This document shows, piece by piece, positions 5,237 through 62,571 of a DNA stretch of 64,000 nt (within the stretch, counting starts at the first letter, position 1; each line of letters begins with the position of its first letter). Both the position numbers and the translations under genes were made by a program. This stretch comes from an uncultured Nitrospirales bacterium (GTDB lineage Bacteria > Hydrogenedentota > Hydrogenedentia > Hydrogenedentales > CAILVY01). The DNA lies in NCBI GenBank assembly GCA_964474205.1, contig CAYYRW010000037.1, positions 5,599 through 69,598 of the forward strand, read 5' to 3'. Under the pieces are notes generated by a model. That model worked only from the letters and a program-made list of their open reading frames with translations. It was not told the DNA's origin and made no database searches.

Positions 5237-5434
5237 TATAGCGCGCGTAGTTGCGCCGGGGATGGTGCACCTAATCCCCCAACGGGGCAACCGGCGGTTG
5301 CCCACTTTTTTCTGTGGTGACGATTATGGCGTCTACTTGGATTTGTTGGCGGAATGGTGTGGGCACCGTCACGTGAACATCTGGGGGTGGTGTTTGATGC
5401 CTAATCATAGGCGCTGCTTCCCCGCGGCTGTGGA
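5237..5434 (+). mobile_element. decayed 5' fragment of IS200-like/RAYT (COG1943) transposase gene, repeat copy A
   Basis: ORF 5187-5453 encodes ...VHLIPQRGNRRLPTFFCGDDYGVYLDLLAEWCGHRHVNIWGWCLMPNH, matching the RAYT N-terminus up to the first His of the HUH motif, then diverges/stops; nearly identical to 6162-6359. Confidence 0.7.
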
Positions 5435-5478
5435 AGTTCAGTCTTCGATTTAGACGTTCTGGCGTCAGGAATAACATT

Positions 5479-40707: not shown

Positions 40708-41235
40708 TCATGCTGTTGCCGGAGGGGAATTGGGAGAACATCCCGTGAGATACCGTTCACAACGCGGTAATCGCGTCAATAGATATTCATTATCACCAAC
40801 GTGGGAAGCACCCGGTTTCACATCCGGCGCGGAGGGAATCTCGGCACCCCGCCGCGCCAAGGGAACGAACAGGAGAACACCCGGCGCTCCGCATAAGACC
40901 CCTTCCGTCTTCAGTTTCAGCGGTTGTTCCGGAAAGGAATCCGTACGTTCGGTTTGCGCCATTAGCCGTTGAAAATCGAGGACATCCACTCGGCCATCCC
41001 CGTTCACATCCGCCCCCCCTGAATCCATCGAGGCCAGCAACGAAACGGCGACGGCCTGCATATCCAAGACATCCACCCGGCTGTCGTTGTTGATGTCGCC
41101 GGTTCGGCAAACCGACACAGAAGCCCCGTAAAGCGCACTAACGCCAAACACTACGGCCACCATAACGCTTATATACGGTTTGTAAAACACGCAGGCAATT
41201 ACCTCTTGGATAAATTTATACCAAATTATACCCAA
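40708..41235 (-). CDS. small secreted protein with dockerin-type I repeat pair
   Basis: DINNDSRVDVLDMQAVAVSLL and DVNGDGRVDVLDFQRLM Ca-binding loop + helix repeats; N-terminal hydrophobic segment (true start probably internal Met/Val near MVAVVFGVSALYG). Confidence 0.5.
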   Translation of the reverse strand: MGIIWYKFIQEVIACVFYKPYISVMVAVVFGVSALYGASVSVCRTGDINNDSRVDVLDMQAVAVSLLASMDSGGADVNGDGRVDVLDFQRLMAQTERTDSFPEQPLKLKTEGVLCGAPGVLLFVPLARRGAEIPSAPDVKPGASHVGDNEYLLTRLPRCERYLTGCSPNSPPATA

Positions 41236-41433: not shown

Positions 41434-44001
41434 GTGATGAATTTCAAAGAACAATTGTATAACGAGATATTACCGCAGGTGGAACGCCCTTCGCGTTATC
41501 TCGGAAACGAGCTGCATTCGGTGCATAAATCCAAGGAAGAAGCCGCGTTACGGATATGCCTGTTTTTCCCGGATTTGTATGAACTGGGCCTTGGGAACCT
41601 TGGCCTGCACATTCTCTATGCCGTTTTGAACGACCAGGAGGGGGTGTGGGCGGAACGGGGGTATTCCCCCGCCCCCGACATGGAGGCGCTGCTCCGATCC
41701 CGTCAAATTCCCCTGTTCATGTACGAGTCCAAAGACCCGCTCGTGGATGCGGACCTTGTTGGTTTCACGCTTCAATCCGAACTCACCTATACCAATGTGG
41801 TGAATGCGCTCGATCTCGCGGGCATCCCGTTGCGGAGCGCCGCGCGCGGGGAACAACATCCTCTGATTTTCGCGGGAGGCCCCGGCGCGTATAATCCTGA
41901 ACCTTTGGCCCCGTTCATTGATTTTTTTGTCATTGGCGATGGCGAGGACGCCATTCTGGAGATTGTCCAGGCGTTGCGCCCGCTGAAAAACGCCCCGCGC
42001 CAAGCGAAACTGGAAGCGGCGGCCCGGATCGAAGGCGTTTATGCGCCGGCGTTGTATCCGGTGGAACTATTGCCGGATGGGCAGGTGGCGCCGGCGCTGG
42101 ACGGGCCCAAAATCCGCAAGCGGTTGACACGCAACCTGGACACGGCGCGGTATCCAGCAAATTATATTGTGCCGTTCACCCAGTTGATTCATGACGGGGT
42201 GAGCCTGGAAGTATTGCGTGGCTGCACGCATGGATGCCGCTTCTGCCAGGGCGGGGTTATCACGCGCCCGGTCCGGGAGCGGAGCCTCGAAACCATCGAC
42301 GCACTCATGCGGGACGTGATAACAGCCACCGGGCTGGACACCGTTTCGCTGATCTCTCTTTCCACCTGTGATTACTCGCGGGTGCGTACGCTGGTTCGGC
42401 AGGCGGCGCGCCGGGCGCATGCGGAAGGCGTATCGGTTTCCCTGCCCTCCCTGCGGCTGGATTCCTTTGCGGTGGAACTGGCGGACTCCCTCGCGGGCGT
42501 ACGCCGCAGCGGGTTGACCTTCGCCCCGGAGGCCGCCACCGCACGGTTGCGCTCCGTTATTAACAAGTTCATCCCCGACGAAGACCTGATCGACCTTGCC
42601 TGTGAAGCGTACCGGCGGGGCTGGGGGCACATCAAAACCTACTTCATGATCGGCCTGCCCACGGAAACGGACGAAGACGTGGCCGCCATCGCCGATTTAT
42701 GCCTGCGCACCCTGCAGCAAGGACGCAAGATTACCAATCGGGCCATGGTGCACACCGGCGTATCCACGTTTGTACCCAAACCGTTCACCCCCTTCCAATG
42801 GGCGGCGCAGATCGGCCTTGACGAAACGGTGCGCAAGCAGCGCATTTTATCCGATGCCTTTCATAAGAACCGGGGCATCAAATTCGGGCGGCACCTGCCG
42901 GAAAGTTCGTTTGTGGAAGGCCTTATTGCACGGGCGGACCGCCGGTGCGCGGACCTCATCGAGGCGGCATGGCGCCATGGGGCGCGGCTGGATACCTGGG
43001 ATGAGCAACTCAACTTCCCGGCCTGGCAAAAGGCCATCGAAGAAACCGGCTTCGACGTGGCATTCCAATTCCGCGAACGCGCCCTCGACGAACGCCTCCC
43101 CTGGGACCACATCGACGTATTGATTCCCAAGACCTGGTTTCAGGAGGAATGGCGCCGAGCCATGGAACGTGAACATGCCCGCGATTGCCGGTATGGCAAA
43201 TGCAATCTTTGCGGCATCATGCAGCAGGAACCGGAGTTGTGCCGCGCCATGCTCAACCGCCCGGCCATCATTGAACAAGAAGCCACCACCCTGGACCGCA
43301 TTCCTGCGCCCCCACCCACCGTCAAGGACCCGCTCCAACGCATCCGCCTGCGGATCGGGCGTAAAGGCGAGGCCCGTTTCCTGAGCCATCTGGAATTCCA
43401 AAATGCCTGGATTCGCGCCTTCCGCCGCGCGCACCTGCCCGTCGCACAATCCCAGGGGTTCCATGCGCATCCCCGCATCAGTTTATCCACTGCCTCTCCC
43501 GTGGGCGAAGAAAGCGAAGGCGATTACCTCGATGTCCTGCTCGAAGAATTCATCTACCCCGATGAACTGCTGGAGGCGCTGCATAAGGTGCTCCCCCCCG
43601 ATCTCCTGGCACTGGAAGCCACCGATATCCCCCTGCGCGGCCCTTCCCTCATGAGCCTCGTCGATGGGTTTGAATACACGCTCCACACCACTGCGGATGC
43701 AGAAACCCTCCAAACCACCATGGAACATCTTCTTGCCCAGAACACCCTGCCTGTGCAACGCCGCGTGAAAGACGCCAACAGCAAAAAGAATCCTGGCCAC
43801 GAAGACACCGCCCCCTTCGATATTCGCCCCCTGATCGAAAAACTTCGCGTAACCTCAAAAAACGGGCCAGAAGCCATCATTGAGTTCAATACCCGCGTTA
43901 AAGAAGGACGCCACGCCCGCCCCAAGGAAATCATCGCCCTCCTCGGACTCGACCCCACAAAGACCCGCGTCATCAAACGCAACACCCGCTTACTGCCTTG
44001 A
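41434..44001 (+). CDS. B12-binding-domain radical SAM protein fused to DUF2344-like C-terminal domain (TIGR03960/TIGR03936-type)
   Basis: 855 aa; CTHGCRFC (Cx3Cx2C) radical SAM cluster motif after an N-terminal B12-binding-like region. Confidence 0.8.
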   Translation: MMNFKEQLYNEILPQVERPSRYLGNELHSVHKSKEEAALRICLFFPDLYELGLGNLGLHILYAVLNDQEGVWAERGYSPAPDMEALLRSRQIPLFMYESKDPLVDADLVGFTLQSELTYTNVVNALDLAGIPLRSAARGEQHPLIFAGGPGAYNPEPLAPFIDFFVIGDGEDAILEIVQALRPLKNAPRQAKLEAAARIEGVYAPALYPVELLPDGQVAPALDGPKIRKRLTRNLDTARYPANYIVPFTQLIHDGVSLEVLRGCTHGCRFCQGGVITRPVRERSLETIDALMRDVITATGLDTVSLISLSTCDYSRVRTLVRQAARRAHAEGVSVSLPSLRLDSFAVELADSLAGVRRSGLTFAPEAATARLRSVINKFIPDEDLIDLACEAYRRGWGHIKTYFMIGLPTETDEDVAAIADLCLRTLQQGRKITNRAMVHTGVSTFVPKPFTPFQWAAQIGLDETVRKQRILSDAFHKNRGIKFGRHLPESSFVEGLIARADRRCADLIEAAWRHGARLDTWDEQLNFPAWQKAIEETGFDVAFQFRERALDERLPWDHIDVLIPKTWFQEEWRRAMEREHARDCRYGKCNLCGIMQQEPELCRAMLNRPAIIEQEATTLDRIPAPPPTVKDPLQRIRLRIGRKGEARFLSHLEFQNAWIRAFRRAHLPVAQSQGFHAHPRISLSTASPVGEESEGDYLDVLLEEFIYPDELLEALHKVLPPDLLALEATDIPLRGPSLMSLVDGFEYTLHTTADAETLQTTMEHLLAQNTLPVQRRVKDANSKKNPGHEDTAPFDIRPLIEKLRVTSKNGPEAIIEFNTRVKEGRHARPKEIIALLGLDPTKTRVIKRNTRLLP

Positions 44002-44217
44002 TCCCATCCGAAATAAGGACAGACATTTTCGATCCGCGGAGAGACTAATAACATACACGGCCAATCCTTCCTCGCCGGATTGACCGTGCCACCCAGCGGA
44101 TTACGGATTCAATCCCGAAAAACTTTCTGCTTCGCGTGGCACGGTCAAGGCTGCATAGCAGGCTTGGCCGTGAGTTCTTCTGTTAGTTGCCGTCAATAAA
44201 GGATACGAAAATCCCGT

Positions 44218-47200
44218 TTATTCTTTTCTCTTCTTCCGCGACGCCATGATTAGCGCCAAGGCGCCAGACAGGGTAAGCAGCAGATCACCGGGCGCCACAC
44301 CGGCCAGACTGCCCGGGGCGGCTTTATTCCCCGCACACCCGCAATCGTTGTCCGGTTCCCCCTCGCCTTCCCCCTCGCCTTCCACGGTTCCTTCAGCCTG
44401 CCCTTCTTCCTGGCCTTCGACTTCGCCTTCCACCGGCACCCCTTCCTCCTCGCCCTCGATAACCCCTTCGCCTTCTTGTTGGCCTTCATCGTCTCCTTCA
44501 CCCTCGGGCTGGCCTTCGAGTTGGCCCTCTTGTTCGCCTTCCGGCGGTACCCCCAGGGTGTTGAACACTTCATTGGTTTCAATTGCGGCATTTTGATCGA
44601 AAACAATGGACGCGCTGTTTACTATTCGGGCGGCTTCCGGCGCATCGGCCCTCGGCAGAATCGTAAAGGAAACATGGCCTTCGCCACGGTGCGTAGCGTC
44701 ATTGGGCGGCAGCAACCCCGCCAACGCATCCTCCGGCAATTCACCGGTGTCCGGGTCCAGCGTGCGGAATCTCCATTCCACCTTGCCGTTCACCGAATTC
44801 ATGGTCGCGGTAACGTCCACCCACCATGCCTTGGATACGTCCACCCGGTAATCCGCGATCGTTTCCCGCGTGCTCAGCACACCGGCGTCCGCAGGGACCT
44901 CGACCGAATAGCTCCCCCACTGGATATCCGTCAGCCGGAAGGTCGACCAGTCAAGATACTCGCTTAAATAGTCGGTTACGATGACTTCCTGTGCGGGGGC
45001 GGAGGCCGAGGATTTGTTCTCAAAGAAAATGCTGTAGGTGAGCACTTCTCCGCGCGGCACCCAATGCTCCGCCCCCGTGCCCGGCACACCCGTCTTTTCA
45101 TTCGGGTCATCCGGGAACAATATTTCCGGGTCCCCCAGGTATTCCCAAATGGGATCATCGTGGGGTATCAACATGTTCTTTCCCGCCTTTAATAACGGGT
45201 CAGTCGCCCACGGGTTGCGCGGCACCGGCTTATACCAGTCGGCATCCCGGAGCGAGGCCACATAGTCATCGGTAAGCTTGTCGGCAATGACTTTTGTGGT
45301 GCCCAGCACAAACAGCGTGGCGCCCACCGGCGTCGGCGCGCCAATCGTAAAGGCAATCAATCCGCCGCCCCACAATCCCCAATTAACATCCGCGCGCCAA
45401 TCGTCATAAGGGTCGGGCGTCTTTCGCGCATCGTCTTCGGCAAACGCCGCGGCAATGCCCCCGGTAACCGAGGTAAAGTACCCGGCCGCATTATTCGCCA
45501 CACTGCCATCGGGCGCGAAATTGCCTAAATACCCGATAATGTATTCGCCCAGCGCCTGCACATCCGCCGCTTTAAATTTGGACAAACTCTTGGGCGGATG
45601 ATAATCGCCCTGGGTTCCCTGGCCCGGTGTTGGCGTCAGTGTTTGGTTGGTTTGCGTGTCGGTATGGGTCTGGCCGTTGTAGACGGTTCCCGACCCGTCG
45701 GAGGTTGACCCTCCCTGGCCTCCGGCCTGATAGGGGGTGCCCGTCCCTTGTTTGGAGGAAGACAGCACCTGGCCAAAGGGATCATACTGGTACTCCGCAA
45801 TCACCGCACCCGTGGCATCCGTAAGCTGCACCGTGTTTCCGTCCGCGTCAAATGCATAATACTCGGCGGCCCCGCTGCCATTGATGCGGGCCACAAGGCC
45901 ATACCCAATGACGTTTGAGGCCACCAGATTTCCACTGCCATCGAATTCCGCGATGCCCCCGCCCCAGCCTTCCAGCCCCGGCGCAAACCGCTTCGTTTCG
46001 CCATTATGGGTAATGGACGTGCGCTGGCCAAGCGCGTTGTAGGTGTATTCCCAGACATCGCCCGCCGAAGCTTCGACCCGCACGAGCCGGTTGTCATAAT
46101 TGTACTGATAGTCCGTCGTGCCGGAACCATCCGTACGGGAAGCGCGATTCCCATTCGCATCGTAGGTAAAGGTTGCATCGCCCGCCTGCAGACACTGATT
46201 CAGGACGCCCACGCCATACGTTTCCGGCAATGCGCCCCCGGTGCTGCTCAGCCGGTTCCCGGCCGCATCGTATATAAAGCTCTGCGTGTGGCCATCCGGA
46301 TAGGTAACTTCCGTGAGCCGTCCCGCCGCATCATAATCATACAGCCGGGTTCCATCCACGGTATTCATCGAAATCACGCGTTCCGCGGCATCATAGGCAT
46401 AATCAAACCGTGACTGCACTCCCCCCGCCCCGCTGTAATTGACCATACTCATGATATGCCCCACGGCATCATACGCGTACTCCGTATACGTCCCGTTGCC
46501 CCTGGTTTCGCGCGAAAGGCGCCCGTCCGCATCGTATTCATACCCCGCCAGATCCCCCACGCCTTCCTGTACCAGGCGCATCAATCGGCCCTGGGCATCA
46601 TACTGGTAATTCAACACCACGCCATCACTGCCGGAACGCCGGGTTCGTAATCCTGCATCGTTGTATTCATAGGCAAACCACATTCCCCCGGGATAATCGA
46701 TGCGTACCGGGAAGTTTCGAGCATCATACGTGATCGAAATGGTTCCCGAGGCATCCGTAACGCTGGCAAGCTGCCGCGCGGCGGTATAGGTGCAGGTCAC
46801 TTCGCGCCCGTCCGGATATGCCTTGCGCGTCATTTGTCCGTGGCTATTGAACTCAAAATAAAACGTCTCCCCCTTGCGATTGGTGTACCGCGTGAGCTGG
46901 CCATGGTCATCATAGTTGAAATTCTCATACGTGCCATCCGCAAACGTAGCCCGCTGCAGCCGCCGCTGTTCGTTGTATTCAAATTGCAGCGCATTCCCCT
47001 TGGCATCCACGAGCGCCTTGGGCATCCCAATCCCGGACTTCATTTGCAGGGTGGTTTCATTCCCCAAGGGATCGCGGATCACGCTCTCAGCGATATCCTG
47101 CTGGTGCTCCGATACATGCCCCAGCCCGTCCGTGACCCGCGCAAGATGGCCGTCACTCCAGTCATACTCCAACGTTACAACCGGCCCGTCCGGTTTTTGC

Positions 47201-50200
47201 ACGCGGACCACCCGATTGGTGGCGTCGGGCGAAAGCACCACGGCGGGAGCGGAATCATCGCCAAACGTTATGGAGACCCGGCCATCCTCATCATAGGAAT
47301 ATGCCCGGCGGTTCGCCGTTCCGTCCGAATAATCCGCCGCCAGGCGGCCATAGGCGTCATAATCGAAATGACCCGCCGAACCATCCGGGTGCACCGTGCC
47401 GCGCAATGCGTGGTCCGCAGGGCTTCCGGCATCCCCGTTATAGCTGTATTGAACCACCCGTCCTGCGGCATCCGTCACACTCAGCAAATGCTCGTTCGCC
47501 GTATCATACGCAAAAGTGGTGGTGCGCCCCGCCTGATCCGTGAGTTGTTTGATACGGCCCGCCGTGTTGTACTCCAATTGGAAGCGGTCCCCGCTGGAAT
47601 GTTGCATCGCCACCAAACGGCCTTGATCATACTGCGCCGTGAGACGGTTCCCCCGCACATCGGTCAGGGTGGCCAGTTTGAGGTCGGTGCGAAAGACATA
47701 CTCATTCCCGTTGACTTCCGTCAGATGATAGGCACCGCCCTCTTCCACGAAATGCCCCCGGTCTCCCGCGTTCAAGGCCACATACGCGCCATCGTCCTTT
47801 TTCTGGAAGAATCGTTGCGCGCCGGAACCGTCCTGCAGCGTTACACCGCCATCGTCCGATACTTCGAGGAAAATGTTGAGGGAATGCGTCCAACCATATC
47901 CCAATGGGCCAAGGTTCAGGCGATCTCCCATCTGGCCCCGGTATACCCGGGTAAAAGCCAGCGGCAGGCCTTTTTCCGGGCAATAGGCGTCCACGGCGCG
48001 CGCCAGGCATGGCCGCACGGACAGACCGATAATCTTGCGCATTTCGTACAGGGTGAGCTGGGGGACGGACCAATACAATGCGCCTTGGGAACTCAGATAC
48101 TCCGCATTTTTCCGCAGTTGTGCCACATACTCACCCCAGGTCGTCCCAAAATTCTGTTTCAACAGCGGCCAGATGCGTGTCCAAAGCGCATCCTCGACAT
48201 TCGCCGGACGCATATTCGCCTCGTGCGCATCCCAATCAATCACGGTTTCCGGATCACTCTCGACGCTTACGTCGAAATCCAGTTTTTGATGCGCGTGGCC
48301 ATTGCCCAAGACCTGTATGGGAATGCGCTGCCGCGCCCCAGGTTCACAGGTGGAAACGCCTGTTCCGTTCTCATCCGGGGTCAATCCCAATACTTGGATC
48401 GGGTTTGTGGACCACGGTTCATTTTGCGACAGGCGCATCGGCATGGTATCCCGCGAGGTGATTGTGAACACCGGCGCGGCCTTATCCGCCAACCCGATAT
48501 TCTCAAACCCGAACCACAACGAAAACGGCCGTTTCCCCCGGGCATAGGCGGGGACATCCAGGGTGGTGGTTAATTGCGCCGGCGCACCCGCCACAATCTC
48601 GAACGCCTGCGGCAAGAGCAGTGCTTCGTTGTCGGGCCACACCACGGCCACATTCACGACCTGCGGCGGCAATCCTGTCAAATCCAAGGCGACTCTCAAC
48701 GCGGACAAGTCGAACGAAGACGGCGTAAAGGTGCGCAATACCGCTCCCGCACCGCTGCGCAATTCCACCCGCATCCCGGTTTCAAACCCAAGCCCGGAAA
48801 GGCTCACCGTGGTGCTTCCGGCATTGCCGCCCGTGTGGTGGCTGATATCCGCCAAATACCGGTTCATACTCAGGCATTGCAGGGTAAAATGCCCTTGGTA
48901 GGCCTTTGCCCAATAGGAATAAAACACGCTCAGATACAGGCTGTTTGAACCCGGCGCGGGAATCAGCATTTCCATGGTTCCATCAGATTTCAGCACGCCT
49001 CGCCAATCGTAGTCCACCAACGTGGGGAAACCGCCGCGCCGCCCCACCAGCGTCCAATTCCCGGAGTCACCCGCCGGTGTCATCCGCACCACCACGTTCG
49101 GCGCCGCGCCGATCCGTAGTTTCAGGCGGAAATCGCTGTACTCCAGGGAATACACATCGCTTTCCACACTCTCATCCAAGGCAATATCCCGCGCATGACG
49201 GTTCGCGGGGGGCAATCCCGAGTCGAATACCAGCCCCTTTGAATCGTCATAGCCTGCCAGCAACACTTGGGCGCCGTCCCGCGACAAGTCCAAAGAATCG
49301 CACCCGGAAGCGCCCATGACCGGCCCGAACGCTGAAACCACCGCCCCAGTGAGCATATCCCACACTACCGCCTGGCCATTTTTCAGCCCGGCGAAGACAT
49401 GCCACCCGTCCGGGGCCGCCGCGAGACTTAACACCGGCGAATCCCCGTTCAGGGTTTGCAGCTCCCCGCCTGTTCCCGCATCGTACACCACAATATTCCC
49501 CGTGCTGCACCCCGCCAGAAAACGTTTCCCGTCCGCCGTGAACGCCACGCTGCGCACTTCTCCATACGGATGCGCCGGATTGAACGAATACACCTCATCG
49601 CCCGTCTGGGCATCAAAAATCTTCGCCGTGTTGTTCAGGGCTCCCGTGCCAATCCGCGCGCCGTCCGGGCTGATCGCCACCGACATCACCGCATCCTCAT
49701 TCGCCGTGCAATCGGCGGCCACCGCGCCCGTATTCACATTCCACAACTTGGCGGTTCCATCCTCCGACCCCGTCAATACATGAATGCCATCCGGCGAATA
49801 CACGGCGCCGCGTATGGCCCCATTATGTCCTTCAAATGCCCGCAATTCCGCCCCCGTCGCCACTTCCCATAACTGCACCGTTCCATTGAGTTGCCCGGTC
49901 AATACCGACGCCCCGTCCCGCGAGCATGCCACCGCGGAACCTTGCCAGGTAAGATCCGAAATTTTCCGTTCCGCTACTTCCCCATGCGCATCCCATAACC
50001 ACACATTGTACCCAAACATCGTATATGAACTTACGCCCGCCACCCGGCTCCCATCCGGTGAAAACGCCCCGCGGGACAGCGTCTCGGCAGCTTGCTCCCG
50101 CTGCATCAGCAGCGGATTTGGCGCGGCATCATAACTCACCAGCGCATAGGGATCGTCCGCCCCTGTGCCACAGGCCAAGGCAATGCGCGCCCCATCGGGT

Positions 50201-52209
50201 GACAACGCCCAGCAGCCCACCCTATTTTGGTAATCAAACCGGTTCAACAATGTCCCGGAGGCCACGTCCCATATATAAACATCGTCAAACCCGCCTATCA
50301 GCGCACGGCTGGAATCCCCGGAAAACATTATATCTTCCGACCCATAGAAATACCCAACCCCCGGCGGGTCGAATCGCTGCACTTCCGCCCCCGTCACCGT
50401 GCTGACTATGGCGGCATATTGCTGATCCGGCTGTTGAAGGCACAACGCCCGCGACAAATCCCCATTAAAATCCATCGCTTCCAATCCAGGCAGAGCCAGC
50501 GTGCGAATCAATGCACCGGTCTGGACATTCAAAAATCGAAGCGTGCATGAACGCGTTCCGCCGTAATCCCCCTCCGTATGCACGGTCACAAGCGTCCGGT
50601 TATCGTTCGAGAAATGCATTAACTGCACCGAATCTGTCTGGTCAAGTGCGGGAAGCGCTTCCCCCGTCGTGGTATTCCAAAGCTGGCATACGCCGGTGTT
50701 CGACCACCCTCCCACCCCCACGATGGTCCCATCCGGCGAATACACCGCGGTCTGCGCACGCACGGCATTGTCAAACGTGCGGAGATGCGCCCCCGTTTGC
50801 GCGTTCCATAAATCCACCTGCTTGCCAAAAACCGTGAATACTTTCGTACCATCCGCCGAATAGAGTATTCGCGCGGTGTCCGTGTTATACCCACTGGCAA
50901 TATCCACCGTAAAGGAAGCCCCGGGCGCCCCCGTCTCCGTATTGCATTGAAACACCTGCATTTGCGTTTCACTTTCTTTGTAAACCGCCACCGCCGCCGT
51001 CGTACTATCCGGCGCAAATGCAATATAGACCCCCTCATCCACAATCGGCACCGCCGGATGCCGCGCAAACGAAGCCATGCCAAACACGTCCACAATGGCG
51101 GTATTCGCCAGCAGGCTCCGGTACCCCGAAGTGGTTTCGACAAGGTTGAACGCCGTCACGGACCGCTGTCCGTCCGGTGAAATGGCGCTCACCACATCAC
51201 TAACTGTCTTTTCATGATTTTCCAGCAGGCGATCCGAGAGGGGCAGCGTGCCGTAGTAAATGCGTTGTTGGATGTCCGCGCAGGTATGCCCGTCAAAAAT
51301 AACCTTCGCCCCATCCGGGGTGAAAAGAATCGAGTCCGCGCCATAAAATGTCTTTTCCGCCTGCACCCCTGTCGCCGCATCCCAAATCGTCGTCTTTTGC
51401 ACATCCCACGTCGAGCTATACCCTTGATGATTGTACGTCGAACTCACATACACGTGCGTGCCGTCCGGTGTCATGGCCGCGCTTATCACAGATTTAAACG
51501 CATCATACTCCGCCGGACGATCCGGCGGCGTGATCGTGGCCATCGGTGCGAGGGCCGCCGTGTCCCACACGCGCACCGCACTTTCGCATACGGTGGCAAA
51601 TCGCGCCCCATCGGCACTGAACGATACGTGTTTAACCTCGTGTTTGTCCTCATGCATCAGCGTATTCAACAACACACCCGATGCCGCATCCCAAATCGAA
51701 ATCGTCCCCACAGGGTCCGTATGCACAGACTGTTTGTGATGATTGCACGTAAGTATCTTCTCCCCATTCTCAAAAAACGCCACATCATTCACCCGATCCC
51801 CCACCGTGAATGTGCGGACCACCGATCCCGTGGCCACGTCCCACAGAACCGCCTGGCCCACCTTGGCGCCATCCGATTGTATGGTCTGACCTCCCGTGAG
51901 CACCCGTGCGCCGTCCGGAGAATAGGCAATGGACGTCATGGCCCCCGTCGTGCCCGCAAACACTTTGACGGACGATCCCGTATCACTTCGGATAATTCTC
52001 ACCAATGACGATGCACACGCCACCGCCAAGTTCATTCCGTCCGGGGAAAAGACCACGTCCGCGATCTTCTGCCCACCCAGCACCTGTTTTGGAATTCGTT
52101 GCATATCAAGCGTTTGCGCCTGCGCCAAGCCCATCTCAACCACCACAAGAAGGCAAACGAATACCCTTTGCCCACACTTCATGCACCACATACCGGCACC
52201 TCCTGGCAA
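44218..52209 (-). CDS. giant (2663 aa) secreted beta-propeller (WD40/YVTN-like) + RHS/YD-repeat protein with C-terminal sorting-signal-like tail
   Basis: signal peptide; >15 FSPDG/YSPDG-type propeller blades; long YD-repeat array (YDAAGRL…, YDANGNR…) ending in YQYDPFGQVL core-like motif; then DUF11-like region, (EGEG)n spacer and CGC-motif/TM/KKRKE tail. Confidence 0.8.
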   Translation of the reverse strand: MPGGAGMWCMKCGQRVFVCLLVVVEMGLAQAQTLDMQRIPKQVLGGQKIADVVFSPDGMNLAVACASSLVRIIRSDTGSSVKVFAGTTGAMTSIAYSPDGARVLTGGQTIQSDGAKVGQAVLWDVATGSVVRTFTVGDRVNDVAFFENGEKILTCNHHKQSVHTDPVGTISIWDAASGVLLNTLMHEDKHEVKHVSFSADGARFATVCESAVRVWDTAALAPMATITPPDRPAEYDAFKSVISAAMTPDGTHVYVSSTYNHQGYSSTWDVQKTTIWDAATGVQAEKTFYGADSILFTPDGAKVIFDGHTCADIQQRIYYGTLPLSDRLLENHEKTVSDVVSAISPDGQRSVTAFNLVETTSGYRSLLANTAIVDVFGMASFARHPAVPIVDEGVYIAFAPDSTTAAVAVYKESETQMQVFQCNTETGAPGASFTVDIASGYNTDTARILYSADGTKVFTVFGKQVDLWNAQTGAHLRTFDNAVRAQTAVYSPDGTIVGVGGWSNTGVCQLWNTTTGEALPALDQTDSVQLMHFSNDNRTLVTVHTEGDYGGTRSCTLRFLNVQTGALIRTLALPGLEAMDFNGDLSRALCLQQPDQQYAAIVSTVTGAEVQRFDPPGVGYFYGSEDIMFSGDSSRALIGGFDDVYIWDVASGTLLNRFDYQNRVGCWALSPDGARIALACGTGADDPYALVSYDAAPNPLLMQREQAAETLSRGAFSPDGSRVAGVSSYTMFGYNVWLWDAHGEVAERKISDLTWQGSAVACSRDGASVLTGQLNGTVQLWEVATGAELRAFEGHNGAIRGAVYSPDGIHVLTGSEDGTAKLWNVNTGAVAADCTANEDAVMSVAISPDGARIGTGALNNTAKIFDAQTGDEVYSFNPAHPYGEVRSVAFTADGKRFLAGCSTGNIVVYDAGTGGELQTLNGDSPVLSLAAAPDGWHVFAGLKNGQAVVWDMLTGAVVSAFGPVMGASGCDSLDLSRDGAQVLLAGYDDSKGLVFDSGLPPANRHARDIALDESVESDVYSLEYSDFRLKLRIGAAPNVVVRMTPAGDSGNWTLVGRRGGFPTLVDYDWRGVLKSDGTMEMLIPAPGSNSLYLSVFYSYWAKAYQGHFTLQCLSMNRYLADISHHTGGNAGSTTVSLSGLGFETGMRVELRSGAGAVLRTFTPSSFDLSALRVALDLTGLPPQVVNVAVVWPDNEALLLPQAFEIVAGAPAQLTTTLDVPAYARGKRPFSLWFGFENIGLADKAAPVFTITSRDTMPMRLSQNEPWSTNPIQVLGLTPDENGTGVSTCEPGARQRIPIQVLGNGHAHQKLDFDVSVESDPETVIDWDAHEANMRPANVEDALWTRIWPLLKQNFGTTWGEYVAQLRKNAEYLSSQGALYWSVPQLTLYEMRKIIGLSVRPCLARAVDAYCPEKGLPLAFTRVYRGQMGDRLNLGPLGYGWTHSLNIFLEVSDDGGVTLQDGSGAQRFFQKKDDGAYVALNAGDRGHFVEEGGAYHLTEVNGNEYVFRTDLKLATLTDVRGNRLTAQYDQGRLVAMQHSSGDRFQLEYNTAGRIKQLTDQAGRTTTFAYDTANEHLLSVTDAAGRVVQYSYNGDAGSPADHALRGTVHPDGSAGHFDYDAYGRLAADYSDGTANRRAYSYDEDGRVSITFGDDSAPAVVLSPDATNRVVRVQKPDGPVVTLEYDWSDGHLARVTDGLGHVSEHQQDIAESVIRDPLGNETTLQMKSGIGMPKALVDAKGNALQFEYNEQRRLQRATFADGTYENFNYDDHGQLTRYTNRKGETFYFEFNSHGQMTRKAYPDGREVTCTYTAARQLASVTDASGTISITYDARNFPVRIDYPGGMWFAYEYNDAGLRTRRSGSDGVVLNYQYDAQGRLMRLVQEGVGDLAGYEYDADGRLSRETRGNGTYTEYAYDAVGHIMSMVNYSGAGGVQSRFDYAYDAAERVISMNTVDGTRLYDYDAAGRLTEVTYPDGHTQSFIYDAAGNRLSSTGGALPETYGVGVLNQCLQAGDATFTYDANGNRASRTDGSGTTDYQYNYDNRLVRVEASAGDVWEYTYNALGQRTSITHNGETKRFAPGLEGWGGGIAEFDGSGNLVASNVIGYGLVARINGSGAAEYYAFDADGNTVQLTDATGAVIAEYQYDPFGQVLSSSKQGTGTPYQAGGQGGSTSDGSGTVYNGQTHTDTQTNQTLTPTPGQGTQGDYHPPKSLSKFKAADVQALGEYIIGYLGNFAPDGSVANNAAGYFTSVTGGIAAAFAEDDARKTPDPYDDWRADVNWGLWGGGLIAFTIGAPTPVGATLFVLGTTKVIADKLTDDYVASLRDADWYKPVPRNPWATDPLLKAGKNMLIPHDDPIWEYLGDPEILFPDDPNEKTGVPGTGAEHWVPRGEVLTYSIFFENKSSASAPAQEVIVTDYLSEYLDWSTFRLTDIQWGSYSVEVPADAGVLSTRETIADYRVDVSKAWWVDVTATMNSVNGKVEWRFRTLDPDTGELPEDALAGLLPPNDATHRGEGHVSFTILPRADAPEAARIVNSASIVFDQNAAIETNEVFNTLGVPPEGEQEGQLEGQPEGEGDDEGQQEGEGVIEGEEEGVPVEGEVEGQEEGQAEGTVEGEGEGEGEPDNDCGCAGNKAAPGSLAGVAPGDLLLTLSGALALIMASRKKRKE
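44340..44560 (-). repeat. low-complexity GAAGGC-rich tandem repeats encoding (E-G-E/Q-G)n spacer
   Basis: encodes EGEQEGQLEGQPEGEGDDEGQQEGEGVIEGEEEGVPVEGEVEGQEEGQAEGTVEGEGEGEGE. Confidence 0.8.
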
Positions 52210-52431: not shown

Positions 52432-53733
52432 ATGTCGATGTACTGCGATCAATGTGAGCAGACCTTTGGCGGGAAAGGGTGCACCACGAAGGGTGTCTGT
52501 GGAAAGAACGAGGATATTGAGTCCCTGCAGAAGATATTGCTGTATGGATTGAAGGGGATGGCGGCGTACAAAGCGCACGCGCGGCGGCTGGGCAAGACGG
52601 ATGCAGAAGTTGAAGCATTCATCGAGGATGCGCTTTTCGCCACGATGACCAACGTGAATTTCGACATGGAATCGCTGCTGGGGATGGTGCTGGAATGCGG
52701 GCGGATGAATTTGAAGACCATGCAGTTGCTGAACGACGGTCATGTGGAAACCTTCGGCACGCCGGAACCGACGGAAGTGACGGAAGGCATAGCGGACGCG
52801 GCCCCCGGTATTCTGGTGACGGGCCACGATCTGATTGATTTGCGCGAACTCCTGGAACAAACCAAGGACACGGGCATTAAAATATACACGCATGGCGAAA
52901 TGCTTCCGGCCAATGCCTATCCGGGCTTGAAAAAGTATCCGCACCTCGCGGGCAACTACGGCGGCGCCTGGCAAAAGCAGAAGAAGGAATTTGAAAGCTT
53001 CGGCGGACCCATCATCGCCACCACCAACTGTGTGCTGATCCCGCCGGCCGCCAGCACCTATCTGAACAGACTGTACCTCACCAACGTCACCGGCATACCC
53101 GGCGCGGTGAAAATACAAGGCACGGATTTCTCTCCCGTAATCAAACGCGCCTTGGAAATCGGCCCGCTTACTCCGACAGAAACCAAAAAATCCCTGATCG
53201 GTTTCCATTACAGCCAGATTCTGGGCATCGCGGACAAGGTGGTGGAAGCGGTGAAGAGCGGCCAGATCAAACATTTCTTCCTGATCGGCGGGTGCGATGG
53301 CGCGGAACCCGGCCGGAATTATTTCACCGAATATGCGCAAAACACGCCCCCGGATTCCATCGTGCTCACCTTGGGCTGCGGCAAGTACCGGATTCGTGAC
53401 AACGAGTACGGCACGGTGGCGGGCCTCCCCCGCTTTCTTGACATGGGCCAATGCAACGATTCCTACGGCGCCATCCAGGTCGCCGTGGCTCTGGCCGGGG
53501 CATTCAACTGCTCCGTAAACGAGTTGCCCCTGACAATGTGCATCAGTTGGTTTGAACAGAAGGCCGTGGCGGTGTTGCTGACCCTGCTGCACCTGGGTGT
53601 GAAAGGTATTCGCCTCGGTCCGGCCCTGCCCGCATTCGTGACCCCGAACGTGTTCAAGGTATTGCAGGACACCTTTGATCTTGGCCCCATCGGTTCGGAT
53701 CCGAAAGCCGACATTGCGGCGCGCGTCGCCTAA
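52432..53733 (+). CDS. hcp: hydroxylamine reductase / hybrid-cluster protein (short form)
   Basis: MSMYCDQCEQTFGGKGCTTKGVCGK N-terminal Cys cluster typical of Hcp; 433 aa. Confidence 0.85.
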   Translation: MSMYCDQCEQTFGGKGCTTKGVCGKNEDIESLQKILLYGLKGMAAYKAHARRLGKTDAEVEAFIEDALFATMTNVNFDMESLLGMVLECGRMNLKTMQLLNDGHVETFGTPEPTEVTEGIADAAPGILVTGHDLIDLRELLEQTKDTGIKIYTHGEMLPANAYPGLKKYPHLAGNYGGAWQKQKKEFESFGGPIIATTNCVLIPPAASTYLNRLYLTNVTGIPGAVKIQGTDFSPVIKRALEIGPLTPTETKKSLIGFHYSQILGIADKVVEAVKSGQIKHFFLIGGCDGAEPGRNYFTEYAQNTPPDSIVLTLGCGKYRIRDNEYGTVAGLPRFLDMGQCNDSYGAIQVAVALAGAFNCSVNELPLTMCISWFEQKAVAVLLTLLHLGVKGIRLGPALPAFVTPNVFKVLQDTFDLGPIGSDPKADIAARVA

Positions 53734-58216: not shown

Positions 58217-59905
58217 TCATGGAACCGTGCGCTCTTCTTCATATACCGACATCACCTCAGTTTCAGATAACGCCTTCTCATATACGCGCACGTGTTTCAT
58301 CCAACCATAGAAATAATCCCCCGCGCCAAAGCCTATCCGCAAGGGTTGGTTGTTGGAGAGGTCATATCCTGCCGCATCAAAACCGGTACTTTCAGCCACA
58401 GGCTTCCCATCAATGAACAGGCGGAGAGAGTGGGCATCACACGCCACCGCAAGATGCCGCCACCCCGGCTTCAAGGCATCATCGAAGGTAACGTTCCTGC
58501 CCGCTTCCATGCAGAACACCTTGCCGGAAGGCAGCGTCCCGCAAAACAGTTTGCCTTGATACACCGCCATGGACCACGCCCGCCGGTATTTCCCCTCCGC
58601 CGTGTCCAAGGGCTGTCCAATGAGCGTCCAGGCATTCTCATGGTCATGGCGATACACCCTGGCGGAGGGCAGGGTGCCTGCATACAGCTTGCCGTTGTAA
58701 ACCATCATGCCCATGCTCTCATTCTCTTCTCCGGGCTTTCCGCACGGCGTCCACACGAACTTCTCATCCATGCGGTATATATAGGCTTTCGGCCAGGTCG
58801 AAACATGCAATTGCCCCCCATACACCGCGAAGGAATAGTCCTGATCGATGGGAGGGTTAATGGTGCCGCCCACATACGACCAGTTTGCGCCGTCGTAACG
58901 AAACGGACCTCCTGGCGCATCATAAGAAACCATATACAAACTGCCATTGAACACACAGGGGTTCAGCACGCGGCGGCCCGGATTGCCGCAATACACCCAT
59001 TTCTTATCCCCTTCATACCGGTATAATCCAAATCCGTCTTTCTTCAGAGTGGTGGCATAGAGCCTGCCCTTGAATACGGCCAGCCCGCCTATCGTAATTG
59101 CCTTGCCGGTTTCCGGATTTTCCAACGCCCCGCAATCCGTCCATTGTTTCCCTCCCTCAAAACAATAGATCGTGCCTCCCGGGGCCGTATTGGGAGAGGC
59201 CGCGAGGGCCGATCCCGTCGTGTCATACCAGGAAGACCCTGCATAAAGCTTTCCGTTGTACACGGCCAAGGCCCCCACCGAATTGCTCGGTCCCGGACTG
59301 CCGCAATCGCGCCAGGATGTTCCGCCCTCATAGCGGTACACATGCCCGGATTCCCCTTCCCCCGCTTCACACGTGGCCGCGTAAAGCGCCCCCTCATGAA
59401 CCACCATGCCAAAAATGAAAATGGCGTTTCCGGGACGCCCACAATCCGTCCATTGGGTCACCTCCGTGCCGCTGTCCATGCCACAGTGTACCGTTCGATA
59501 GTTGGACTGGGAATTTGATACCCCCGAACAGGTCAGAAATCCGAGATTGAATCCCCGGCGGGTCTCCGGATCATACTTGCTTAAAAGATCGCCAAGGGCA
59601 TCGTCCAGTTCCTCCTTGGTATAAACCCACATGGACACACAAAAGCCACTTGCCTTGAATTGGGGCGAAACAGCGTTGGGCGCCTCCAAAAACGCAGTAC
59701 GGCCATCAAAGCGCGCAGCACGGCTTCCATCAGGGACAACAGCGCCAAATTCCACCCCATGGTTTTCCGCATGACAGCCATTCCCGGAACTGTCCTGCCC
59801 GTCTTCCAGCAGCTTCCAATAAGCCGCCGGAACGGGATTGGCCATGGCTGCCACGCATGTACCTAAGGCAACGAGCACGACCGCATATCGAAAAAACAGT
59901 CTCAT
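58217..59905 (-). CDS. secreted protein: LamG/concanavalin-like domain apparently interrupted by a ~6-bladed beta-propeller-like insertion
   Basis: signal peptide; N-terminal ARFDGRTAFLEAP…FCVSMWVY and C-terminal WRHLAVACDAHSLRLFIDGKP…LRIGFG…GWMKHVRVYEKALSETEV look like the two halves of one LamG domain; middle has six Y(R/C)(Y/F)EGG…W..CG.PG repeats. Confidence 0.5.
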   Translation of the reverse strand: MRLFFRYAVVLVALGTCVAAMANPVPAAYWKLLEDGQDSSGNGCHAENHGVEFGAVVPDGSRAARFDGRTAFLEAPNAVSPQFKASGFCVSMWVYTKEELDDALGDLLSKYDPETRRGFNLGFLTCSGVSNSQSNYRTVHCGMDSGTEVTQWTDCGRPGNAIFIFGMVVHEGALYAATCEAGEGESGHVYRYEGGTSWRDCGSPGPSNSVGALAVYNGKLYAGSSWYDTTGSALAASPNTAPGGTIYCFEGGKQWTDCGALENPETGKAITIGGLAVFKGRLYATTLKKDGFGLYRYEGDKKWVYCGNPGRRVLNPCVFNGSLYMVSYDAPGGPFRYDGANWSYVGGTINPPIDQDYSFAVYGGQLHVSTWPKAYIYRMDEKFVWTPCGKPGEENESMGMMVYNGKLYAGTLPSARVYRHDHENAWTLIGQPLDTAEGKYRRAWSMAVYQGKLFCGTLPSGKVFCMEAGRNVTFDDALKPGWRHLAVACDAHSLRLFIDGKPVAESTGFDAAGYDLSNNQPLRIGFGAGDYFYGWMKHVRVYEKALSETEVMSVYEEERTVP

Positions 59906-62571
59906 TTCCCGGTCCTTCCTGTCTTTCTTTGCTGCTTATTATCCGTATTTGCGCGCCAAGAAAAAATCTGCGCTTTTCGTTCATCATTGGGAGTATCGAG
60001 AGAGAGCGTGAACGTGAGAGCCCAAGTCCCTGTCACCGAATCATAGTCGGCCTGCCACCAGTCATTGCCAGCGGACGATGATTCATCAATCACTTCGATA
60101 TCCCCATTGGCACCCTGTTTTGATAGATGGAAACCGGTGTTATGGGTGACCTCGGAGATGGTGACGGGGGTATATCCAATCCCGCCCGTGATGCTGAATT
60201 CCGCGCGCTGTCCCTTCTTTGCGCGAATACGGACCGGCCACGTGTTCTCCACCGTGCCGACGGAAGCCTTCACTTCGACGTTCGACCCCATGGCCTCCCG
60301 GAGCGTCAACGCCCAAGGTTCCGATGATCGCTTCAAGGCAACCATCACGTTCTGGTTGGGTCCGTAGTAGTCTTCCGCCTGTTGCGGCAGGACAAGCACT
60401 TCTATCTGGGCGTCAACAAAATCGCCTTGTTCCAGTTTCTGGAGTTCCGGCGGGGGCGCCAACTCCACCAACGCGCTTTTCATACCATCCTCCGTCCCAA
60501 ACACGGAATAGCGCGGTGTGGCACATTCCATTCCGCCCAGTTTCGCCTTCCAACTCCGAACTATCATTGCCTTATCCGCCAGCGCACCCTGATCGTCTTT
60601 GGGATAGGCCTCCGGCGGCGTTTTCTGAACACCATAAAGGCCAATCCACGGAAGCGTTCCCGGCAATTCCTGGCTCCTTCGGCTATAGGTCCATCCGCCT
60701 GTGGCTGGTTCCCATGCTTCATCCATTCCCGCGCTGGAACCCCGCGCAATCTTTTGAAACTGAATCGAGTTATAGTGGTCCGCGCCCAATTGGAAAAACG
60801 CAAGCCGGTCTATGTTTCCCACAGGTTTCGTCACGTCATACCGCAACGTATACAGTGCCCGGACATAATCGTCGGAACGCCAGCTTTGCGTGCGAACGCA
60901 GGATTGTAGCGCACCGCCATGCGTCTGCCCCGCATACGTCACATCCGTAAGGACCGGGCCATAACTGCGGTATAACGTTTTCTGACGCCCAAGGAATTTC
61001 CGGTCCGGGCTGTCCTTGGTAAACAAGGCCAGAAAATCGCAACCACCCACATTGTGCGTCCAACTCCATTGGGTCTTCGGCTTGGCGCCCATGCCCCAGA
61101 CCATCAGCGGACGCATGTCATCCACCATCGAACGGCCCAGATTCACATCCGCGTCATAGCAGATGCTCTCCCCGAAGGAACCTATGGACATTTCATCCCA
61201 CAACTGATTGCCGCCATAGCCAACCAGGCATAATTGCGCATGCGCCACCGCCGGGACGCCTCCCCACCGGCTATACGCCAAATCGAATTCCAGTTCCAGC
61301 GATTGACTCGCCCCAAGTTCCAGCATTGCAAGACCGTTGAACCACGGTGGCGCGCAATGCCAGTTTTTGGAAATTTGAATGGGAAGCCCAATGGGATAAC
61401 CGTTCTTATCCCGCAGAATCGGCGACATCCCGGTAATCGAGAAGTTACCTCCGATCTTGGCGAAATTCAGACGAACAGTGCATGGCTCCGGCGCGGCATT
61501 CCTCAGCGTCACGCGCACACGCTCCATCGTATTGACATCCGCATTCTCCCCCAGCAGAATCTGGTGCCATCCCTTCACCGCATCATAATCCACCCGAAGC
61601 GCACCACTATAAGGGGCCATCCCTTCCGCCGTCACCTCAATGCGCCCCTCGGCCGCGGCGACCATCTGGCGAACCTCCCGCAATGCATCACGCCGGACAT
61701 CCGCGGAGGGAACCACCACACAGGAAAAGGTGTGCACGCTCTCCCCCACCATGCTTATGGGGTCCGTCTCTATCGCCAAATGGCCGTCGCCCATCCGCCG
61801 CACATGCTGATTTTGACCAGGAAGAGTCAATAGCGCAATGCCATTCTCCGCCGAATTGCGCACCACCACCGCCCGGTCCGAAATCTCCCCCATTTCTGCC
61901 TCATGCCACGTATCATCCTTCCCAAGCATTTCAAGAATGGGGTATTCCGTGGGAATCGTAAGCAGCGTGGTAAAAGTCACCTGTTCCAGCCCATGCGGGG
62001 GCGTGAGGTGATTCTTATACGAAGCGGTATGAAGTTGTAATGCCACCCGGTCACTCCAGGCATACCCCTCCATCCACGCATGAACCCCTTCCAATCCCGC
62101 CCCGGATTGCAACCCGCCAATTTGCACGTGCTGTACGGAAAAATGTTGTAGATATTTCCCCACACGGTGTAACCATACCTGCCTTGGGTCGGTGGTGCCT
62201 GTCCCCACGGGAAAAACCCGGCCATTCCACGTCAGGGTAAAGGTCAACTCCGTTTCGGGAAGCGAATTAAGCACCTCGTTGCCCTGATTCGCCGCCGCCG
62301 CATCATCCAACGGATTTACGATGGGGCCTATTCGGTTGATGCGGCCCCTGGAAGCATCCAACAGGAAAGCATACCGGTTGGTCTGAACCGCAAAGCGGAT
62401 GGGACCATCTTTTTTCGGAGGCCGCCATCCATAGGGATAGTATCCGAACGTGTAATCGCTTGCATGACTCAGCGACGTCCCTGCCACCAGGGCAGCGCTG
62501 GCTCCAGTCCCGGCGGCACCCAGAACACTCGAAACCAACACACAACAAACGGCACGTGCGGAAAACATCAC
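59902..62571 (-). CDS. large secreted hypothetical protein (889 aa)
   Basis: signal peptide MMFSARAVCCVLVSSVLGAAGTGASA; no motif I can assign; possibly carbohydrate-active. Confidence 0.5.
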   Translation of the reverse strand: MMFSARAVCCVLVSSVLGAAGTGASAALVAGTSLSHASDYTFGYYPYGWRPPKKDGPIRFAVQTNRYAFLLDASRGRINRIGPIVNPLDDAAAANQGNEVLNSLPETELTFTLTWNGRVFPVGTGTTDPRQVWLHRVGKYLQHFSVQHVQIGGLQSGAGLEGVHAWMEGYAWSDRVALQLHTASYKNHLTPPHGLEQVTFTTLLTIPTEYPILEMLGKDDTWHEAEMGEISDRAVVVRNSAENGIALLTLPGQNQHVRRMGDGHLAIETDPISMVGESVHTFSCVVVPSADVRRDALREVRQMVAAAEGRIEVTAEGMAPYSGALRVDYDAVKGWHQILLGENADVNTMERVRVTLRNAAPEPCTVRLNFAKIGGNFSITGMSPILRDKNGYPIGLPIQISKNWHCAPPWFNGLAMLELGASQSLELEFDLAYSRWGGVPAVAHAQLCLVGYGGNQLWDEMSIGSFGESICYDADVNLGRSMVDDMRPLMVWGMGAKPKTQWSWTHNVGGCDFLALFTKDSPDRKFLGRQKTLYRSYGPVLTDVTYAGQTHGGALQSCVRTQSWRSDDYVRALYTLRYDVTKPVGNIDRLAFFQLGADHYNSIQFQKIARGSSAGMDEAWEPATGGWTYSRRSQELPGTLPWIGLYGVQKTPPEAYPKDDQGALADKAMIVRSWKAKLGGMECATPRYSVFGTEDGMKSALVELAPPPELQKLEQGDFVDAQIEVLVLPQQAEDYYGPNQNVMVALKRSSEPWALTLREAMGSNVEVKASVGTVENTWPVRIRAKKGQRAEFSITGGIGYTPVTISEVTHNTGFHLSKQGANGDIEVIDESSSAGNDWWQADYDSVTGTWALTFTLSLDTPNDERKAQIFSWRANTDNKQQRKTGRTGK

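Follow-up and report, generated by a model that had tools for sequence, protein, structure and literature searches.

A putative C-terminally tethered RHS/YD-shell surface protein with a degenerate core in an uncultured Hydrogenedentota bacterium

RHS/YD shells are seen as single-use containers for a C-terminal toxin, which is severed, kept inside and finally let out into a target, and the metazoan teneurins are the textbook exception, in which the container turned adhesion receptor after the cleavage was lost. Here we analysed a giant RHS/YD gene lying in a window of 64,000 nucleotides (the whole stretch of DNA under study; positions 5,599 to 69,598 of contig CAYYRW010000037.1, assembly GCA_964474205.1), which derives from an uncultured Nitrospirales bacterium assigned by GTDB to the Hydrogenedentota. 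An earlier sequence-only reading by a model had described one unbroken open reading frame (ORF) on the minus strand at 44218..52209, which the ORF list and the translation confirmed, and had given its length as 2663 aa, which counts from an upstream TTG; the real start is the ATG at 52191, yielding 2657 aa as in an identical protein of public data (P0001). Because AGGAGG lies upstream of this ATG and P0001 has 2657 aa, all residue numbers are counted from the Met at 52191. With a probability of about 0.5, we propose a Sec-exported RHS/YD-shell protein that is tethered at the cell surface by its C-terminus and has lost self-cleavage.

Among the described systems, the bacterial teneurin-like proteins (TLPs) comprise an FN-plug, NHL and a YD shell, are attached via N-terminal modules, cut themselves at the RHS motif, shut a C-terminal domain of ~15 kDa completely inside and have an immunity gene immediately downstream, and in metazoan teneurins the uncleaved C-terminus exits the shell and forms domains outside (PMC13018210). 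Like the TLPs (BiTLP, 9ifo), the window protein would be exported by Sec, attached to the surface and made of a YD shell with a beta-propeller and domains of the adhesion type, and its segment behind the core invites comparison with the hydrophobic C-terminal domain of BiTLP; unlike them, it has WD40 propellers far upstream, three immunoglobulin (Ig) domains between these and the plug, a shell directly after the plug and a C-terminal anchor, and it lacks both the cleavage motif and a downstream immunity gene. A bacterial TLP was rejected as its identity, since NHL is absent from the junction of plug and shell and the motif for cleavage is missing. The Rhs effectors of the type VI secretion system (T6SS) provide the best structural matches to the shell and share the YD repeats, the plug and a short, sometimes hydrophobic domain right after the core position; in these effectors the N-termini are linked to PAAR/VgrG, the DPxG-x18-DPxG core is active, the toxin forms the very C-terminus and an immunity gene is present, whereas the window protein has a Sec signal, WD40 arrays, a core that fails the hidden Markov model (HMM) and 470 further residues of stalk, spacer and anchor. 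A T6SS effector was likewise rejected, by the Sec signal, the missing PAAR/VgrG context and the ordinary neighbouring genes. Metazoan teneurins resemble the window protein in the absent RHS cleavage motif, in a propeller-plus-shell ectodomain for adhesion and in the fold of the shell, but are type II membrane proteins with an N-terminal anchor; the resemblance is presumably a functional and convergent one, and the exit of the chain would be expected here.

The RHS/YD shell and its degenerate core

The YD-repeat array noticed in the sequence-only reading was recovered by PF05593 (1.8e-64, in 10 stretches) and TIGR01643 (1.3e-41), with a DUF6531 plug at the start of the RHS region (Pfam, E 4e-10). 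An AlphaFold model of residues 1392-2556, computed with 60 homologs in the alignment, had a predicted local distance difference test score (pLDDT) of ~90 from the plug to ~2186, and predicts a beta-spiral shell, presumably closed, with an N-terminal plug. Foldseek matched this shell to Salmonella bongori Rhs (8qjc, 9.5e-48), RhsA (7q97, 6.4e-46) and Tse5 (8cp6), with T6SS proteins in the range of 1e-43 to 1e-47, and also to the bacterial TLP 9ifo (6.7e-40), teneurins (~1e-37) and TcB-TcC. By repeats, plug and fold the protein is an RHS/YD shell, but it has neither a core domain that passes the HMM nor a complete protease motif.

The decapeptide YQYDPFGQVL (2134-2143), which had been likened to the RHS core, is the core's beginning, but the domain as a whole fails HMM analysis. 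TIGR03696 gave no match to the window protein at E<=10; when equivalent 400-residue segments were scanned, the relatives P0003, P0004, P0006, P0010, P0012 and P0014 reached 60-78 bits (cut-off 32.5), whereas the window protein and its 79% identical ortholog P0002 yielded nothing at E<=1. The true RHS core expected by HMM, whose absence the sequence-only reading had set down beforehand as speaking against itself, was not found. A custom core HMM built from 39 canonical sequences scored the window protein at 15.5 bits over positions 1-51 of 81 only, versus 57-104 bits for canonical loci, and both this HMM and the family alignment showed the final 30 core positions to be replaced. In the family alignment, the Arg of RxYYD is substituted by Thr (within GQTHTD, 2173-2178), GRF by NQT and the Asp of the first DPxG by Thr (within TLTPTPGQG, 2184-2192), and the second DPxG(L) motif, i.e. 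the PxxxxDPxGL cleavage site, has no counterpart, with AADVQALG in its place. The RHS autoprotease consists of that Arg and the two Asp of DPxG-x18-DPxG, a motif absent from mammalian teneurins (PMC13018210). Because the core HMM fails, the catalytic Arg and first Asp are substituted and the second DPxG is absent, we infer that self-cleavage has been lost.

A third close relative (L084:2-4318; ENA ERZ724078 NODE_6322) is interrupted by an in-frame stop at the very site of the degenerate core (...YQHDPFGFVVASSKNTDVKAYQAKGYDDTFES, stop, MYEQTNDLY...), so that its shell (a 677-aa product) and its C-terminal module (P0329) are called as two abutting genes, the second without a signal peptide; the stop could be a sequencing error, a nonsense mutation, a read-through or a real split.

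The segment behind the core and its counterparts in relatives

Behind YQYDPFGQVL, 514 residues were counted, fewer than the ~750 stated in the sequence-only reading, and the first part of them, a helical and partly hydrophobic segment of 175 residues (Table 1), occupies the position of a toxin tip. It ends in D-x-Y-V-x-x-L-R-x(3)-W-Y-x-P-V-P-R-N-P-W and has one borderline transmembrane (TM)-like stretch at ~2278-2296 by hydropathy. A profile of the segment (A3) found only 12 clusters among 1.84 billion representative proteins, each directly before the DPNEK motif that opens the following domain. No match was obtained in Pfam or NCBIfam (residues 2064-2368 scanned), and the profile retrieved only noise from PDB sequences (E >= 0.8), in keeping with the earlier statement that no toxin domain is recognisable.

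The full-length ortholog P0002, from a partly syntenic JGI metagenome locus, is 79% identical to the window protein, with a whole-gene ratio of nonsynonymous to synonymous substitution rates (dN/dS) of 0.11 at synonymous sites near saturation. Over residues 2216-2361 the identity rises to 95.9% and dN/dS falls to 0.015. The post-core segment is thus under stronger constraint than any other part of the protein, the reverse of what marks a polymorphic toxin tip. As also noted before, no small immunity-like ORF follows downstream, where a spacer of 216 bp is succeeded by a convergent radical-SAM gene. A search at the loci of P0002, P0004 and P0005 revealed no conserved downstream partner ORF either: the small ORFs 3′ of the P0002 and P0004 genes are mutually unrelated and without a counterpart in the window, and the gene 3′ of P0005 lies on the opposite strand. 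The two marks of a polymorphic toxin, i.e. a recognisable or hypervariable toxin at the extreme C-terminus, where a predicted membrane anchor lies here, and an adjoining immunity gene, are both absent.

More distant relatives (P0003-P0006, P0010, P0012 and P0014; 30-34% identity) combine WD40 arrays, the same Ig linker, the RHS shell and the domain opened by DPNEK, DUF7619. Two others, P0008 and P0011 (2363-2368 aa), agree with the window protein in the WD40 head, the Ig linker and the DPNEK/DUF7619 end, but an unrelated beta-rich body of ~900 residues replaces the shell, which shows that the central part of such giants is exchanged as a module.

A scan with the DUF7619 alignment, taking one genome per species, confirmed 323 loci, and details were drawn from the best 80 of these, which hold 81 ORFs; the ORF counts are lower bounds, as some ORFs run off their loci. 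The best 80 loci belong to Hydrogenedentota, Chloroflexota, Acidobacteriota, Planctomycetota, Verrucomicrobiota, Sumerlaeia and other phyla, and the closest genome matches to the C-terminal domain were Hydrogenedentota metagenome-assembled genomes (MAGs). YD repeats lie upstream of DUF7619 in at least 29 of the 81 ORFs, a pairing of which no mention was found in a 2025 survey that covers DUF7619 (PMC12617251). A canonical core (57-104 bits by the custom HMM) was identified in at least 25 of the 29, ending 100-210 residues before DPNEK, and a weak core in at least four (L005, L014, L015 and L028). The stretch from core to DPNEK is hypervariable (mean column identity 11%); only one of 27 such stretches had a Pfam match, to a PPPDE peptidase, while a hydrophobic sequence rich in glycine is seen in several. 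Beyond DUF7619, the 81 ORFs lead to the protein end, dockerins, PKD, type IX secretion system (T9SS), SLH or other extracellular modules. From this hypervariable stretch, set between the core and a conserved DUF7619 with anchoring ends, a class of RHS proteins can be delineated at the sequence level that carries an internal variable cassette between core and conserved stalk plus anchor. Near relatives of the window's segment stand after an intact core in P0004, P0005, P0328 and P0330-P0332, and degenerate cores with intact downstream modules occur in separate lineages (L005, L014, L015, L028, P0149, P0152 and P0327).

Two of the cassettes (L006 and L017) contain W-R-H-D-x-A-(C/L)-(A/H), reminiscent of the catalytic HD of phospholipase A2, and the RHS homolog P0260 has a precomputed match to PF00068, which we take to be phospholipase A2; at least some internal cassettes may thus be real enzymes or toxins.

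Stalk, tail and N-terminal half

The beta-sandwich that had been called DUF11-like at LTYSIFFENKSSASAPAQEVIVTDYL corresponds to Pfam DUF7619 (PF24595; 71 bits versus a cut-off of 27, AlphaFold pLDDT ~95), with DUF11/TIGR01451 itself reaching only E 0.017; a DUF7619 profile found nothing significant among PDB sequences. According to the survey, DUF7619 is one of the CnaA-like domains that are predicted to form an intramolecular Lys-Asp-Asn isopeptide bond and are frequent in Gram-negative surface proteins (PMC12617251). A candidate triad was assigned here by analogy with the published positions, comprising K2366 (DPNEK), D2407 (VTD) and N2525 (NxAxIxFD), of which D2407 and N2525 are invariant across 16 sequences and DPNEK in 7/7 sequences of A3. 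The region evolves at a dN/dS of 0.036 versus P0002. Like the DUF7619/CLIPPER (DUF11) domains of fibrillar surface proteins (PMC12617251), it has the Pfam match, conserved Lys/Asp/Asn candidates and a Gram-negative surface context; unlike them, it is single and not tandem, and always follows DPNEK.

The acidic spacer and the tail with a TM helix plus basic residues, both already seen in the sequence-only reading, are borne out by translation and hydropathy. Similar EG spacers occur in the Hydrogenedentota relatives L003, L009 and P0329, and the tail design recurs in P0002, P0003, P0329/L084 and L012 (a Hydrogenedentes MAG; GC-x-GG, spacer, DLL helix and RRR); no other window ORF with the same tail or EG spacer was found. 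MYXO-CTERM, JDVT-CTERM and related sorting signals are tripartite with an invariant Cys, CPBP-type intramembrane proteases being the presumed processing enzymes, and the curated models of such signals are short and lineage-specific (Haft). Having a Cys motif, a TM helix and an Arg/Lys cluster, the tail resembles a sorting signal in its layout. It is like the MYXO-CTERM type in CGC (cf. GCGC of MYXO-CTERM), the helix and the basic cluster at the extreme C-terminus, and unlike it in the 16-residue spacer from Cys to helix, in the conserved DLL opening the helix, in matching no curated model and in its source, as Hydrogenedentota lies beyond the taxa described.

Other ends were observed among the relatives. 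Fifteen of the 81 ORFs, from Chloroflexota/Anaerolineae (L006, L007, L008, L016, L020, L027, L029, L037, L039, L047, L048, L052, L056, L074 and L078), end shortly after DUF7619 in (Y/W/I)-(L/V)-P-(L/V)-(V/I/L)-x-(R/K), and the same motif closes P0006, P0008, P0011 and P0126-P0141; it looks like a lineage-specific sorting or attachment signal and was matched to no named one. L003 (~5086-5466, Hydrogenedentota MAG) and L011 (~6377-6718, Nitrospirales MAG) carry after their EG spacers, in place of a TM tail, a common Cys-containing end module with C-x-x-H-A-S-D-Y-x-P-x-D-W-x-I-x-L-S-E-L-L-R-x-I-Q-F-F-N-x-G-G-Y-H-x-C.

At the other end of the protein, the predicted signal peptide is supported by a hydrophobic N-terminus and an AQA↓Q site, and the equivalent N-terminus of P0002 ends in VQA↓Q. 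The long propeller array, put at more than 15 blades before, proved to hold 21 anchors of the xSPDG type at residues 48-969, spaced by ~40-50 residues, with strong matches to WD40-family Pfam entries; this number of blades would be enough for three 7-bladed propellers. The linker region described behind it is present, and its content could now be resolved into three Ig-like sandwiches, a helical bundle and the DUF6531 plug. An AlphaFold model of residues 985-1400 had a mean pLDDT of 89.7 and matched in Foldseek only generic tandem Ig, FN3, IPT and macroglobulin structures, and a Pfam scan of the three Ig-like domains gave no match.

The RHS gene stands alone, as its neighbours are divergent and convergent. 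The product of the divergent one, a hybrid-cluster protein, groups at 90% with a protein named from Candidatus Hydrogenedentes; with the Hydrogenedentota MAGs that are closest in the C-terminal domain, this makes an uncultured member of that phylum the most likely source. The other annotated genes of the window (encoding MutS, IlvD, an aldehyde dehydrogenase, a carbamoyltransferase, GH20, LysE, Rrf2 and a sulfatase) are ordinary chromosomal genes unconnected to toxin delivery, and no T6SS, mobile-element or toxin genes were found among the annotated genes of the 64 kb. Between a sugar transferase gene and the radical-SAM gene lies a stand-alone dockerin type I protein of 175 aa (40708-41235, minus strand), an arrangement conserved at the ortholog locus (L002 24203-24613); taken with those RHS-DUF7619 homologs that end in a dockerin, it suggests that these uncultured lineages may assemble surface structures in the manner of cohesin and dockerin. 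Elsewhere in the window, an 889-aa ORF without a Pfam match (59902-62571, minus strand) abuts a 562-aa ORF with a C-terminal Laminin_G_3 (58217-59905, minus strand), and the pair may be another set of large secreted or surface proteins; two adjacent giant ORFs on the plus strand, at 11481-15344 (1287 aa) and 15521-19561 (1346 aa), contain a GDSL-lipase-like stretch and CHRD, respectively, and are otherwise unannotated.

Table 1. Features of the RHS gene, its product and its flanks in window coordinates
Feature	Residues	Position	Strand	Basis
Complete gene, 2657 codons + stop		44218..52191	-	ORF list, translation; identical protein P0001
Ribosome-binding site AGGAGG, 7 nt before ATG 52191		52199..52204	-	Direct sequence reading
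Predicted Sec-type signal peptide, MWCMKCGQRVFVCLLVVVEMGLAQA↓Q	1-26	52114..52191	-	Hydropathy 1.4-1.9 over residues 1-30
WD40 blades, ~21	~40-985	49237..52074	-	Pfam WD40/beta-propeller families, E 1e-32 to 6e-59
Three tandem Ig-like beta-sandwiches	~1000-1319 (~1000-1109, 1112-1200, 1207-1310)	48235..49194	-	AlphaFold
Four-helix segment ahead of plug	~1320-1395	48007..48234	-	Helices at model positions 336-415
DUF6531 plug (~1398-1460) and RHS/YD-repeat shell	1398-2186	45634..48000	-	Pfam, AlphaFold, Foldseek
Degenerate RHS-associated core	2134-2215	45547..45792	-	TIGR03696 scan, alignment, custom core HMM
Helical, partly hydrophobic segment (175 residues)	2187-2361	45109..45633	-	AlphaFold helices, hydropathy
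DPNEK motif and DUF7619 beta-sandwich	2362-2548	44548..45108	-	PF24595 1.3e-19, 71 bits
Acidic E/G/Q-rich low-complexity spacer	2549-2612	44356..44547	-	Translation
Tripartite tail: DCGCAG, 16-residue spacer, helix DLLLTLSGALALIMAS, RKKRKE	2613-2657	44221..44355	-	Translation, hydropathy
Intergenic 216 bp without ORF, 3′ of RHS gene		44002..44217	.	ORF list
Divergent neighbour, hybrid-cluster protein gene		52432-53733	+	
Convergent neighbour, radical-SAM/DUF2344 gene		41434-44001	+	

A tethered shell, its alternatives and the wider class

In the reading that we prefer, the shell would stay covalently joined to the C-terminal module because the protease is lost. The C-terminal domains of bacterial TLPs average ~15 kDa, and the cavity of BiTLP has a volume of 44,000 cubic angstroms (PMC13018210); a folded 190-residue sandwich plus spacer and anchor would be too big for an RHS cavity, so the chain should have to pass out of the shell, as in metazoan teneurins. 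The 175-residue segment, ending in PVPRN, would then sit inside the cage or in its opening, where it would link cage and stalk and would not be a released toxin, DUF7619 would form an isopeptide-locked stalk base, and the tail would anchor the protein in the envelope, where, if the tail behaves like a MYXO-CTERM-type signal, an intramembrane protease may cut it and the Cys may then receive a lipid, followed by export to the surface. In the 81 ORFs, DUF7619 directly precedes either the C-terminal end or a dockerin or another extracellular domain that closes the protein, a position that supports such an anchoring. The putative three WD40 propellers and the Ig-like domains would face outward as a ligand-binding end, and the most likely role would be adhesion at the cell surface or recognition of cells or particles, not the injection of a polymorphic toxin. 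Of the two options left by the sequence-only reading, a divergent or novel C-terminal effector and a surface RHS without toxicity that serves as an adhesin, the surface option is thus favoured in outline by the degenerate core, the missing immunity gene and the stalk, spacer and anchor, with the word adhesin being conjectural; the effector option is less favoured, although there is still a partly hydrophobic segment, under strong purifying selection, in a toxin-like slot.

Several points weigh against this tethered surface protein. A possible Asp is kept at one of the three catalytic positions, in AADVQALG. The segment (~2189-2361) was modelled at pLDDT <50 with helices predicted, so that it may lie inside or outside the shell; it fills a slot that is hypervariable and sometimes enzyme-like in relatives, and it is akin in character to the hydrophobic, membrane-damaging C-terminal domain of a bacterial TLP. 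The 53-residue tail matched nothing in NCBIfam (TIGR03901 and relatives) at E<=10 and no CPBP-type protease was found among the annotated genes of the window, so that the tail may be a plain inner-membrane anchor facing the periplasm. The binding of a ligand by the WD40 array is, moreover, purely conjectural.

The strongest rival, which we regard as rather unlikely, is that the protein is still a toxin-delivery device, with segment 2187-2361 as a membrane-inserting or pore-forming effector that is kept soluble in the shell and set free by an external protease, by mechanical opening at target contact or by residual self-cleavage, the anchor holding the loaded cage on the producer until contact. 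The segment does sit exactly where the 25 canonical-core relatives have their hypervariable cassette of 100-210 residues, a PPPDE peptidase in one case and rich in glycine and hydrophobic in several, and an intact core precedes its close relatives; at ~19 kDa it would also fit an RHS cavity, and E. coli was permeabilised by the hydrophobic C-terminal domain of a bacterial TLP (PMC13018210). Against this, the core is not recovered by its HMM and carries substitutions at two catalytic residues, an immunity-like gene is missing here and none is conserved at the three related loci, and the identity of the orthologs, 79% overall, reaches 96% in the segment, quite unlike polymorphic toxins; besides, it has only the single borderline TM-like stretch and no toxin-family match in Pfam, NCBIfam or PDB.

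We consider it improbable that the protein is internal to the envelope, i.e. that the C-terminal helix is a stop-transfer anchor and the 290-kDa ectodomain a periplasmic scaffold or sensor tethered to the inner membrane. A signal peptide, a C-terminal helix and RKKRKE are the classic topology for this, and it would suit both the unmatched sorting-signal HMMs and the lack of sorting enzyme or secretion genes nearby. But homologs swap the tail for dockerins, T9SS C-terminal domains, SLH and PKD, all of them extracellular anchoring devices, the Cys motif before the helix is conserved in four independent proteins, as in processed sorting signals, and the putative isopeptide stalk with a long acidic spacer is, by the survey cited above, typical of exposed surface proteins. 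Decay of an RHS toxin gene, with core and toxin eroding, is very hard to sustain, since the degenerate core, the missing immunity gene and the stop of L084 exactly at that core are outweighed by an intact 7.97 kb ORF with a strong ribosome-binding site, by an ortholog keeping the architecture at a dN/dS of 0.11 (0.015-0.036 in the post-core region) and by the recurrence of degenerate cores with intact downstream modules in separate lineages, and a pseudogene was rejected by dN/dS as largely refuted.

The question can also be raised at the level of the class, of which no description was found in the open-access literature. Tentatively, and with clear doubts, we suggest an undescribed class, distributed over uncultured phyla (among them Hydrogenedentota, Chloroflexota, Acidobacteriota, Planctomycetota and Verrucomicrobiota), of RHS proteins with an internal polymorphic cassette, whose cage is tied to the producer via its own cargo, and in which several lineages, that of the window gene among them, may have independently inactivated the autoprotease and fixed the cargo to obtain a permanent surface receptor, a teneurin-like step repeated in bacteria. 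Such a class raises the questions of how a cargo could be cleaved that also tethers its own cage, and whether the two conserved flanks aid the exchange of cassettes. With the tail, Hydrogenedentota, of which no model organism is in culture, gains a candidate sorting signal of the Cys type. The importance of the finding would grow if the class-level reading and the independent losses of the protease were confirmed. If the proposed reading is true, the loss of the protease in a bacterial shell whose former cargo and anchor are under constraint would represent a living intermediate for the transition from container to receptor.

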